From Thermodesulfobacteriota bacterium (lineage in GTDB: Bacteria; Desulfobacterota; Desulfarculia; JACQYL01): a stretch of 64,000 nucleotides of DNA. The translations under genes were made by a program, and so were the position numbers. Numbering within the stretch: the stretch's first letter is position 1; the number at the start of each line of letters is the position of its first letter. The stretch lies in NCBI GenBank assembly GCA_963675595.2, contig CAXXLZ010000002.1:992001-1056000 (forward strand), in the 5' to 3' direction. This document shows positions 25,342 through 28,422 of the stretch, one piece after another. The notes beneath the pieces were generated by a model that did not search any database, was not told where the DNA came from, and saw only the letters and a program-made list of their open reading frames with translations.

Positions 25342-25345
25342 CTTG

Positions 25346-25351
25346 TATATT
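25346..25351 (+). promoter_or_regulatory. -10 element (TATATT) of the IS110 circle-junction promoter
   Basis: On circularisation TTGACA (26658-26663) lies exactly 17 nt upstream: TTGACA aagaacacagttgcttg TATATT. Confidence 0.8.
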
Positions 25352-25354
25352 TAG

Positions 25355-25544
25355 CATGCCATCTTTCATACTTAATGGAAGACGGCATGACCCGCAAAGT
25401 TGGTCACGGACATGACAGGCCGCCGGACCCCCAGGAGAAATGGACTCCGTTTGGAAGCTTGGGCCGTCATGTCCTTCCTCGAGATAACCCGTACAGTTGC
25501 CCGGCCTTTTAAGGCCGCATCTGCAAGGTTGGGTACGAGAGGAG
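25355..25544 (+). ncRNA. Putative IS110 bridge RNA in the left non-coding end
   Basis: 5' hairpin 25355-25389. Target-binding loop closed by ggacatgac.ggcc/ggccgtcatgtcc (25408-25474) with guides ggaccccc and ttggaag. Donor-binding loop with guides acagttgc and tgcaag around hairpin ggccttttaaggcc. Confidence 0.8.
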
Positions 25545-25549
25545 TTATC

Positions 25550-26518
25550 ATGGGCGAGATCACCTGTTTCGTGGGAATCGATGTCTCCAAGGACCGGCTT
25601 GAAATCGCCGTCGTTCCCGGCGAGGAAGCCTGGTCGATGACCAACCATGAAACCGATTTTGATGCTTTAATCAACCATCTCAAAAATCTTCCTCCCTCCA
25701 TGATCGTCTTGGAGGCTACCGGTGGGCTTGAGACTCCGGTGGCGAGCGCCTTGGCCGGAGCCGGGTTGAATGTGACCGTGGTCAATGCACGACATGTTCG
25801 TAATTTTGCCAAGGCCAAAGGAATACTGGCAAAAACCGATCGCATAGACGCCACAGTCCTGGCCCATTTCGCCCAGGCTGTCCGGCCGCAAATTCGGCCT
25901 TTGAAGGACGACCAGCTGCGAGCGCTGACTGCTCTGGCCGATCGGCGTGGACAAATCATAACCATGTTGACCGCCGAGAAGAACCGTCTTCGAAGCGCTC
26001 ACTCCTCTCTGCACAAGGATATCCAGGCCCATATCTCGTGGCTCCAGAAGCGCCTTGAGGACTTGGACCGGGAACTCCGCAAGGCGATTCGGGCATCTCC
26101 CATTTGGCGGGAAAAAGACGCTCTGTTTCAAAGTGTGCCCGGAGTGGGACACGTTCTCTCCTCGACTCTGCTGACCCGCTTACCCGAACTCGGGGCATTG
26201 AACCGTAAGCAGATCGCCGCCCTGGTGGGAGTCGCTCCCCTGAATCGTGACAGCGGGAAGATGCGAGGGAAACGCTCTATTTGGGGAGGCCGCGCCCAGA
26301 TTCGGGCCGTATTGCACATGGCCGCCTTGTCCGCCACCCGTTCAAACCCGGTAATCAAAGCCTTCTACCAACGGCTTACTAAAGCTGGAAAAGCGCACAA
26401 AGTGGCTATGACTGCCTGTATGCGTAAGCTTCTGACCATACTGAACAGCATGGTCAAAACCAATACTCATTGGCGCGTCCAACAGCCTGAAATCGGTGTC
26501 AAAGACACATTAAGTTGA
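25550..26518 (+). CDS. IS110-family DEDD recombinase/transposase
   Basis: [34 protein letters not shown]...DSG...GKRSI.GGR...R..L.MAA, A.MRKL motifs. RBS gaggag before ATG at 25550. Confidence 0.96.
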
Positions 26519-26657
26519 CCGGTTTATGTATCACATCGGTTAACCGATGCTGCCGTGGTCTGCTGTGGCGCGGTGCTTGCGCGCGGCAGCCCCACGCGTG
26601 CCGCGCCTAGCAAGCGCCGTGTTACAGCTTCATAGGAATCAGTGACAAACAACTCAG

Positions 26658-26663
26658 TTGACA
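26658..26663 (+). promoter_or_regulatory. -35 element (TTGACA) in the IS110 right end
   Basis: Consensus TTGACA 13 nt before the right core. Pairs with the left-end -10 only in the excised circle. Confidence 0.8.
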
Positions 26664-26676
26664 AAGAACACAGTTG

Positions 26677-28422
26677 CTTCCAAGGACGAACGGAAACCGC
26701 GATGGAGCGGATCCCGCCGATAGCCGATATTCTTTCCACCGCGGAACGGCCCCTGTGCGAGGAAACGACCCCCAATGACACCGCGGGATCAGCGGTGGTT
26801 TCGATCAGGGGTTTGCTTACGCCGCAAGCTCGCAGCAAAGATTTTGACGCCTCATCGCGCACCGTAATACGCTTTACTCGATTGGATACGATCCCAACCG
26901 CCCATCGCGCGAAGCGAGATTTCAGCGGCCCCACTCCCACCGCGTAATACATCACGGGCGTCCTTGATATCAGAGCGAGCAGAACCCGACTCATCCAGAA
27001 AGGAACCACGCGAAAGGAAGCGTCCTGCAGGAGTCCGCCTCCACCCAGTATGAATAGATCCGAACGCCTTGCCTGCTTGAAGATTCGATAAAGACCGCGA
27101 AATCTCCGGCCCATGGGAAGGCTTTTTACGCCGTGCATACGGGCCGTCGACTCCGGGTCCCAACTCAGGACCGTGATCTCGTGAATGCCCTCTTCCCTGA
27201 GGCCTTTGATCATGGCACCGAGGATGGCCTCATCTCCGATATTTCCCGCTCCGTACCAACCGGCCACGGTAACACGACGTTGGGGAGTCTCATCTTCTTC
27301 CTGCCGAACCTTTTTCGCTTCTTCCTTATAAGCTTTCCGTGTCTCCGCCAAAACGTTTTCCATGGAAAAATGGCGGCTCAACGCTTTGCTTCCGTTTCGG
27401 CTCAGACGATCTCTCAGCGAGGGGTCGCGCAGCAATCGCTCGATGCATTCCACGTACCGACCCACATCCCCCTGCTGAACCGCGAACCCGTTACGAGCCA
27501 ACTCGACCGCCTCGGTGTTGCCCCCGACGCGTGAAACGACCACCGGGGTCCGGGCCCGCATCACCTCCAGAAGAGCCATGGACATGCCTTCCATCCTCGA
27601 CGTGGAGACGAAAACGTCGGCCTCCTCCAAAAGAGCCGGCACATCTAGCCGAAACCCGAGAAAGCTCACCTTGCCACCGAGCCCCAGACGCTCCGCGCGA
27701 TGTTCCAATAAACCGCGCAGAGAACCGTCCCCCACGACGACCCCGTGAAATCCGATTTTCCGGCCGAGAGCATGGAAAACTTCGAGCAGGGTATCCGGTC
27801 CTTTCACGGCTTCTAAACGTCCCACGCTTATAATGATGGGCACGTCGGGATTTAGGCCCAATTCTCTCCGCAGCGAGGTCCGCTGCCGGCCGAAGGAAGG
27901 AGGGGAATCGGGCAGGCCGTTACGGATGACCGTAATGCGGTGGGAAGGAATGCCGTCGTTTTCGAGTTCTTTCCCGAGATACGACGACAGCACGATGAAC
28001 CTCGCGACGACCCTTCTCGTCGATCTTTCAATCACCGGATAGAAAAGGCGTTTGAGAGGCGTTGCATAGTCGCTGTAGACGGAACCGTGCACCGTATCGA
28101 TCACCGCCGCGTTGAGGCCGCGGGCGGCAAGCCGACCGACAAAGCCGCCGCGAACTCCGTGCGTATGAACGATGGTCGGCGAAGTATCCTTGAGGTGACG
28201 TCTCAGAGTTGGAATCACCCTCAGGTCCGCCGCGTTCCGCATGGGGAAGACCGTCACGGGAATCCCCAATTCCGCAGATTGCCGCGCCAACTCACCATCA
28301 ATGAAACAGATGATTTGTACGTCCACGTCGGGGTAGCGCTCGCGCAAACCTTTGCACAGAGCGAGAAGATGGACCCGTGACCCGCCTGTTTCCCCGCCGC
28401 CGATGACGTGAACGATCTTCAC
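26677..28422 (-). pseudogene. csaB: GT4 glycosyltransferase-CsaB pyruvyl transferase fusion, N-terminal part (interrupted by IS110)
   Basis: GT4 part: VHTHG, VGRL...KG, GDG, FLGFR.DV, EG....LLE, VGG. CsaB part: GWYGAGNIGDEAIL, LGGGGLLQD.S, GVGPL, ITVRD..S, TADP. Reconstituted protein 756 aa. Confidence 0.9.

Follow-up and report, generated by a model that had tools for sequence, protein, structure and literature searches.

An IS110-group insertion sequence in a Desulfarculia genome with a predicted bridge RNA that matches its donor and target sites

A 64,000-nucleotide stretch of the genome of a Thermodesulfobacteriota bacterium (class Desulfarculia; GenBank assembly GCA_963675595.2, contig CAXXLZ010000002.1, positions 992,001 to 1,056,000 of the forward strand; hereafter the window, in whose numbering positions are given) carries a 1335-bp element with a duplicated CT core on either side (25342-26679; CTT stands at 25342-44 and again at 26677-79). 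Its anatomy, its other genomic copies, the agreement of guide-like strings in its left end with the flanks of those copies, covariation among related left ends, and an empty allele of the locus make it very probable that this is an autonomous IS110-group insertion sequence that works in the manner of IS621. It is, judged by the sections of the two 2024 reports that we cite throughout, a new member of the bridge-recombinase family described there (PMC11208160, PMC11208158) and not a new kind of system. A preliminary description, made from the letters of the window alone, had already named an IS110 element with bridge-RNA architecture; Pfam, the match to IS621, 80 related loci and the published IS621 scheme all bear this assignment out, and every string and coordinate that it gave – the CTT ends, TTGACA, TATATT, ggaccccc (25425-32), ttggaag (25451-57), acagttgc and tgcaag (25522-27) – is present.

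The class of the element is evident firstly from its protein. The sole long plus-strand open reading frame (ORF) with a ribosome-binding site in the element (Table 1) matches PF01548, DEDD_Tnp_IS110 (E 2.5e-25, 89.5 bits against a cut-off of 29), and PF02371, Transposase_20 (E 1.4e-18, 67.4 bits against 21.3): both an N-terminal RuvC-like DEDD domain and a C-terminal Tnp domain with Ser-Gly, which define the IS110 family, are present. Among relatives with solved structures the best by sequence match is the IS621 transposase (phmmer E 4.1e-38, residues 7-305), followed by that of ISCro4 (PDB 9t56; E 6.3e-38, residues 6-306). D11, E55, D97, D100 and S235-G236 align with D11, E60, D102, D105 and S241-G242 of IS621, whose catalytic residues, with the adjoining G242, are named in PMC11208158 (numbering in the PDB chain is offset by +2 relative to the published residue numbers); all five catalytic residues are conserved.

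The ends are equally characteristic. The left end (206 nt) is longer than the right (158 nt), as in the IS110 group, and there are no terminal or sub-terminal inverted repeats: none of 12 inverted pairs found between 25300 and 26720 has its arms at both termini, just as had been reported from the first inspection. The IS1111 group, which shares the recombinase family, has a long right end that encodes the bridge RNA, and 7-17 bp inverted repeats in sub-terminal position (PMC11208160); an IS1111-type reading is ruled out by the position of the guide-bearing RNA in the left end and by the lack of sub-terminal inverted repeats. The boundaries are fixed by seven full copies, in which sequence diverges exactly outside 25342 and 26679, and are fixed again by a contig from a public sequencing run (X1) in which 25341 is joined to 26677, 1335 nt being skipped, with three ambiguous letters at the joint.

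Evidence that the left end encodes a bridge RNA comes from its structure and from the strings that this structure exposes. Positions 25352-25549 fold at -80.5 kcal/mol (z = -3.86), a stability reached by none of 200 shuffles. The fold comprises a 5′ hairpin followed by two stems, each opened by an internal loop, as first proposed, and all four guide strings lie on loop strands; the IS621 bridge RNA, of 177 nt, likewise consists of a 5′ stem-loop, a target-binding loop (TBL) and a donor-binding loop (DBL) (PMC11208160, PMC11208158). A 27-pair structure derived from the window fold was examined on a MAFFT alignment of 48 non-redundant left ends. Paired cells amount to 83.0% for this structure and to 34-46% once partners are slid; the covariation score is 0.531, against at most 0.173 for slid and 0.167 for shuffled partners, with none of 500 shuffles reaching the observed value. 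The TBL outer stem is the clearest case (13 pairs, 12 of them with double changes; 89.8% of cells paired), while DBL helices 3 and 4 are paired in 82.9% and 85.3% of cells. RNAalifold, run on the same 48 left ends, recovered the TBL outer stem and both DBL stems, and 14 of the 16 pairs show double changes.

According to the published rule, left guides carry the top-strand sense and right guides its reverse complement (PMC11208160). On the donor side the left donor guide (LDG) spells the seven left-donor nucleotides plus the first core base, and the IS621 LDG is likewise 8 nt long and stops at the first core base (PMC11208160, PMC11208158). The right donor guide (RDG) pairs discontiguously with CTTGTAT: AU, two skipped bases, a G.T wobble and then CAAG. 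The pattern reported for IS621 is the same, with A157-U158 and C162-G165 paired, G161 and dT12 in a non-canonical pair, and U159 and U160 flipped out (PMC11208158); moreover, positions d10-d14 of the IS621 right donor, deduced from the published pairings, read T, G, T, A, T, as they do here.

On the target side the other genomic copies are informative. The left target guide (LTG), read in the register found across the family, agrees at 8 of 9 positions with the seven left-target nucleotides plus core (LT7+CT) in four copies (L001, L005, L006 and L007), the sole mismatch always being the core T; read in a register slid by one base it agrees at 10/10 in L002 and at 9/10 in L004. The run of C in the LTG may allow two target registers one base apart, L002 and L004 fitting only the slid one. 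The right target guide (RTG) shows 8/8 agreement in L005 and 7/8 in each of the six remaining copies. From these sites the preferred target appears to be CCGGACCC-CT-TCCAAA, adjoining a hairpin that resembles repetitive extragenic palindromic (REP) sequences, and it fits loop 1 better than the window site does. Of the preliminary description's claim about the target, then, the match between guide and target stands, whereas the window site itself, CGATCCC-CT-TCCAAG, is not the preferred target. The four guide assignments made there stand in full: other genomic copies, relatives and the IS621 pairing scheme all agree with them. Two checks that it had proposed also came out in its favour – the stems covary in an alignment with related left ends (score 0.531, 0/500 shuffles), and the other copies' sites agree with the loop-1 guides (LTG 8/9 to 10/10 in six copies, RTG 7/8 to 8/8 in all seven).

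To gauge chance, the 205-nt left end was simulated 20,000 times with a first-order Markov model. An 8-mer from the donor-left window occurred in 266 simulations and a reverse-complement 7-mer of the target-right window in 1279, the two jointly in 17 (0.085%); the 9-mer CCGGACCCC, which is the consensus left flank of the other copies, occurred in 75. The observation at the level of sequence is far beyond chance.

Relatives extend the argument from one element to a family. We scanned a collection with one genome per prokaryotic species and took the best 80 of 128 related coding stretches; no close relative was found in that collection, from which the window's own genome may be left out (closest, 59% protein identity). 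Junctions were examined in 81 rows (the 80 loci and the window), of which 31 were kept, one for each near-identical group with both junctions assigned. Rows were dropped where the left junction was not found by pattern (L020, L022, L030-L033, L035, L059, L075, L077, L078, L087), where the right junction was not found (L026, L045, L046, L049, L068, L089), where the assignment was in doubt or the core stood at the start of the contig (L051, L061, L063, L071, L082, L086, L090), and where the DBL motif was not found (L081); all remaining dropped rows were near-duplicates of kept ones. The left ends have in common the DBL motif and the terminus, CT followed by TGTAT. Each element's left end was compared with its own flank and with the flanks of the others (930 non-self pairings) without alignment, because the C-rich left guide shifts register by one base between elements, which made fixed MAFFT columns unreliable.

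The guides change with the flanks. The reverse complement of an element's own CT plus five right-target nucleotides is present at 7/7 in its own left end in 23 of the 31 elements, as against 18 of 930 non-self pairings, and in all 23 the match lies 35-45 nt ahead of the DBL motif. For LT7+CT, at least 8/9 is reached by 9/31 own pairings against 12/930, and at least 7/9 by 18/31 against 143/930. Two handshake positions, one after the RTG and one after the RDG, have been described for IS621 (PMC11208160, PMC11208158): they pair in 29 of 30 elements on the target side and in 29 of 30 on the donor side, and both elements with A at the DBL handshake position carry T at target P7 (76 of 5000 shuffles reach the observed count).

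A further conserved feature spans the two ends. If right and left ends are joined so that a single copy of CTT remains, TTGACA stands 17 nt from TATATT, and a comparison of the 31 elements by script on right-end and left-end slices finds the boxes at conserved offsets (-35 in 22, -10 in 26). The promoter built by circularisation, as first described, is therefore there at the sequence level, and it corresponds to the published model, in which a sigma70-like promoter is reconstituted across the junction of the circle (PMC11208160, PMC11208158). Its activity in this element is a matter of inference. A scan of the integrated element for promoters and terminators detected no plus-strand promoter-like site and no terminator; the junction promoter is absent from that scan because it exists only in the joined form.

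The mechanism that we envisage follows that of IS621. The element would leave its site as a circle, and joining of the right to the left end would set TTGACA upstream of TATATT; the junction promoter would yield a left-end RNA of about 180 nt, with transcription reading on into the recombinase gene. This RNA would take the form of a 5′ hairpin and two internal loops. Loop 1 would pair with the target, its left guide on the bottom strand of CCGGACCC-C and its right guide on the top strand of CTTCCAAA, while loop 2 would pair with the circle junction, with ACAGTTG-C on one side and CTTGTAT on the other. The DEDD/serine recombinase would then exchange strands at the CT core. Some 16 target positions may be specified in this way: seven or eight of the left target, the CT, and six of the right target.

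An important issue is whether the copies still move. The genome (6.79 Mb in three contigs) holds seven full-length copies, with all seven ORFs open; over 1338 nt five match the window copy exactly, one differs by a single substitution, and one (L007, G000:C1:352398-353735) by 15. These 15 all fall between 25657 and 26293, inside the coding sequence, where they cause four amino-acid changes; the 206-nt left end and the 158-nt right end of L007 have none. Several of the L007 substitutions recur in contigs of two public runs (X4 and X9), and the variant lineage thus occurs elsewhere too.

The locus itself points in the same direction. The window copy is, by the predicted pairing, a less well matched insertion that splits an exopolysaccharide-type gene: when 1335 nt are removed in silico, a single 756-aa minus-strand ORF results. 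Among the public sequencing runs in which the element occurs, no RNA run was found. Four runs were examined as Logan contigs, data in which the back-joint of a circle is not expected to appear. Both 60-nt flanks of the window copy are unique in the genome, so the X1 contig that joins them is an allele of the window locus. Two states of the locus are seen in run X1, an occupied right junction (84-nt contig, depth 8) and an empty site (depth 12.7). The depth of the X1 element contig, 91.7 where the flanks have about 11-13, agrees with a copy number of about seven. In run X4, which is labelled as a different organism, a contig with flanks roughly 90% identical is likewise without the element. One X1 contig carries a G>A difference at 26707 at depth 12.7, the same depth as that of the empty-site contig.

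Could the copies nonetheless be relics, intact in appearance and no longer moving? We consider this improbable. In its favour are two right-end-only remnants in the genome and the lack of a circle junction among the run contigs, which are not expected to show one. Against it stand the five copies identical to the window copy with every ORF open, a locus for which public runs labelled as one organism show the occupied as well as the empty state, and the interruption of an ORF that is otherwise intact over 756 aa. The element appears intact by its sequence and has probably been mobile in the recent past. That it is a currently active bridge recombinase whose natural recognition rule differs slightly from that of IS621 is a narrower proposition: we hold it only tentatively, as conceivable but unlikely.

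The length of the core deserves attention. The preliminary description raised the possibility of a CTT core, and this we abandon: an exchange at three bases seems to us highly improbable. It is true that CTT is found at both junctions of all seven copies and that both right guides end in AAG, complementary to CTT. In the 31 elements, by contrast, the right-hand CT is followed by c in 11, by a in 7, by g in 7 and by t in only 6 – that is, not T in 25 – whereas the left end after CT always begins with T (TGTAT; TATAT in one). Because the base after the right-hand CT varies among relatives, the third T belongs to the right donor, TGTAT. Of 30 elements scored, 28 have an RTG that finishes in AG (an alignment shift affects the remaining two), and the conserved ending is AG then C, the AG being complementary to CT. 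IS621, with the same right donor, is cut between T9 and position 10 (PMC11208160, PMC11208158). The core, on these comparisons, is the dinucleotide CT, as in IS621, and the third T here is one that the right donor and the RTG-specified target appear to share.

The genome offers hints of strict selection of this core. No empty site matches the ideal 16-mer exactly, and the four empty sites with one mismatch all have CA in place of CT. Among repeats of one family (type 1, below) with exact arms – CCGGACCC, two bases, then TCCNAA – all four CT sites are occupied, and the eight empty ones have CA (four) or TT (four). Such a pattern agrees with the published finding that the core T is nearly invariant across the family (PMC11208160, PMC11208158), in a sample that is small and with an ideal target that was itself defined with CT.

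A last alternative, that the left end is a mere 5′ untranslated region or regulatory leader of the transposase gene whose guide matches have no role in the choice of site, can draw on the lack of an RNA run that contains the element and on a regulatory role for ISPpu9 small RNAs proposed in earlier literature (cited in PMC11208160), and is scarcely credible given that the guide strings change with the flanks across relatives while the surrounding stems covary, that the two window matches arise jointly in so few simulations (17/20,000), and that the function of the IS621 bridge RNA has been demonstrated experimentally (PMC11208160, PMC11208158).

Several observations weigh against the view that the element is an autonomous, IS621-like insertion sequence, or at least temper it. 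Transcription, circle formation and catalysis are steps that we infer. For the window copy's left flank, LTG agreement is no better than 6/9 in the family register, or 7/10 in the slid one, and agreement between LTG and flank is noisy in relatives, four of the 31 reaching only 5/9 and C-rich flanks lifting the background. The core T is left without a complementary base by both left guides (the LTG has C25432 or A25433, and C25501 follows the LDG). Support for the TBL inner stem is weak, with 55.8% of cells paired on the MAFFT alignment, probably through misalignment of a short hairpin by MAFFT. An Rfam scan of 25200-26800 with E up to 10 returned three chance-level matches (mir-4888, sX15 and Gl_U6; E 2 to 4.9), all far under gathering scores. 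Finally, the empty-site contig of run X1 has two mismatches to the window among 61 right-flank nucleotides. Its origin may therefore be a variant subpopulation and not an excision event, and run X1 may be the window's own source sample. For this reason the empty site supports the boundaries and the recency of the insertion and is not proof of excision.

Comparison with known systems places the element close to IS621 of Escherichia coli. Both combine a DEDD RuvC-like domain with a Tnp domain that carries the catalytic serine, lack terminal inverted repeats and have a CT core. In both a left-end bridge RNA has a 5′ stem-loop, a TBL and a DBL, with left guides directed to the bottom strand and right guides to the top strand; and the 8-nt LDG, the discontiguous RDG with its G.T wobble, the handshake positions and the split sigma70-like promoter are common to the two. 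The differences lie in the target guides. The RTG has 4 nt in IS621 and 8 nt (CT plus six) here, and the LTG of IS621 pairs with both core bases (PMC11208160, PMC11208158), whereas here it does not pair with the core T. The two proteins are distantly related, and the target sequence and the host repeat are different.

A second comparison concerns ISPpu10 of Pseudomonas putida, likewise a multicopy IS110 element with targets in a REP-type intergenic repeat and a stem-loop 5′ of the target (as described in the part of the preprint cited here, bioRxiv 10.64898/2026.03.19.712850). In ISPpu10 the left target is itself the 3′ arm of the stem, whereas the hairpin beside our element reaches about two bases into the left target before it ends; furthermore, two of the seven copies of our element, the window copy among them, lie outside the described repeats. 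L001, L005, L006 and L007 have the left flank CCGGACCC before CT and belong to one repeat family, directly 3′ of the hairpin GGGGAAACC..GGTTTCCCC; L004 lies in a second family; and L002 and the window copy are elsewhere. Five of the seven copies are thus in REP-like repeats.

Table 1. Features of the element, its host gene and repeat tails in the window (window coordinates).
Feature	Position	Strand	Evidence or remark
Host gene, GT4 glycosyltransferase fused to polysaccharide pyruvyl transferase	24817..28422	-	Pfam; split at about residue 581
Left CT core copy	25342..25343	+	Apparently target-derived; copies diverge directly upstream; relatives' left ends read CT-TGTAT or a close variant
Left end, 206 nt, non-coding, predicted bridge RNA	25344..25549	+	Fold z = -3.86; covarying structure over 48 left ends
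-10 box TATATT of putative junction promoter	25346..25351	+	Complete only in the circular joined form; at least 4/6 to TATAAT at the same offset in 26/31 elements
Predicted 5′ stem-loop	25355..25389	+	Minimum free energy and centroid structures
Predicted target-binding loop; outer stem 25408-21/25461-74, inner hairpin 25434-48	25408..25474	+	Fold, inverted-pair scan
Left target guide CCGGACCCCC	25423..25432	+	Family register 25424-32
Right target guide UUUGGAAG	25450..25457	+	Reverse complement of CTTCCAAA; C25458 is the handshake position
Predicted donor-binding loop; outer stem 25487-91/25530-34, inner hairpin 25502-17	25487..25534	+	Fold, RNAalifold, covariation
Left donor guide ACAGUUGC	25493..25500	+	Left-donor 7 nt plus first core base; identical to 26670-77
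Right donor guide AUCUGCAAG	25519..25527	+	G25528 is the handshake position
Recombinase gene, 322 aa plus stop	25550..26518	+	PF01548, PF02371; AGGAG ribosome-binding site 25540-44
Right end, 158 nt, long hairpin at about 26562-26629	26519..26676	+	Fold -71.4 kcal/mol, z = -4.0
-35 box TTGACA of putative junction promoter	26658..26663	+	At least 5/6 to TTGACA at the same offset (13 nt before CT) in 22/31 elements
Left donor ACAGTTG	26670..26676	+	Relatives' right ends finish ACAGTTG or ACAGTCG, then CT
Right CT core copy	26677..26678	+	Apparently donor-derived; copies, relatives, empty-site contig
Type-1 repeat tail	17055, 18567, 32083
Type-2 repeat tail	18605, 20202, 58942

The right end has a feature of its own, a long, nearly perfect and GC-rich hairpin that lies between the stop codon and the -35 box; the lengths of right ends vary widely among relatives. 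A candidate natural guide variant was also seen: G>A at 25454, in one contig (depth 3.4) from the microbial-mat metagenome of run X9, would change the RTG from UUUGGAAG to UUUGAAAG.

The genome contains two abundant families of REP-like repeats, each built of a hairpin, then a C-rich box, then a conserved tail. With one mismatch allowed, the type-1 tail, GGGTTGCTCGC, has about 175 matches in the genome and the type-2 tail, GGCCTCACCGCC, about 267. Two remnants consist of the right end only: L008 (G000:C2:1729092-1729169, minus strand; 78 nt, 92% identity) and L009 (G000:C2:734818-734890; 73 nt, 85% identity). Each starts right after a REP-like hairpin and finishes with ACAGTTG-CT, beyond which comes a type-2 repeat tail. 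Both lack the left end and the gene, and their left break points differ, falling inside or just after the right-end hairpin. Deletion and donor-only ('half-match') recombination are both possible origins.

Twenty DEDD_Tnp_IS110 genes are present in the genome, and they fall into three groups: the seven copies of the window element, five of a second type (about 63-65 bits) and eight of a third (59.8 bits). Examples of such genes are found at C2:4494868-4495311 and C2:3699585-3700013. Several copies of the third type adjoin type-2 repeats, and beside one of them lies a 31-nt match (L010) to the 5′ arm of the TBL stem.

For the organism, the element explains the split glycosyltransferase/pyruvyl-transferase gene and marks DNA that has probably been mobile recently. 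For the family, it leaves our knowledge of how bridge-recombinase systems work unchanged; what it would add is a natural IS110-group element whose guide-to-site map can be read – seven sites, a REP-like preferred target, a poorer-match insertion that disrupts a gene, and the empty allele of that insertion. The noteworthy differences are the longer RTG, a core T that the left guides appear to leave unpaired, the possible two-register run of C, and a REP-like hairpin beside the preferred target that is reminiscent of ISPpu10. Elements of this kind may offer natural evidence of how far mismatches are tolerated and which core is preferred, and they are candidate orthologues for the engineering of bridge recombinases, in which an RTG longer than that of IS621 would mean that more target positions are specified.

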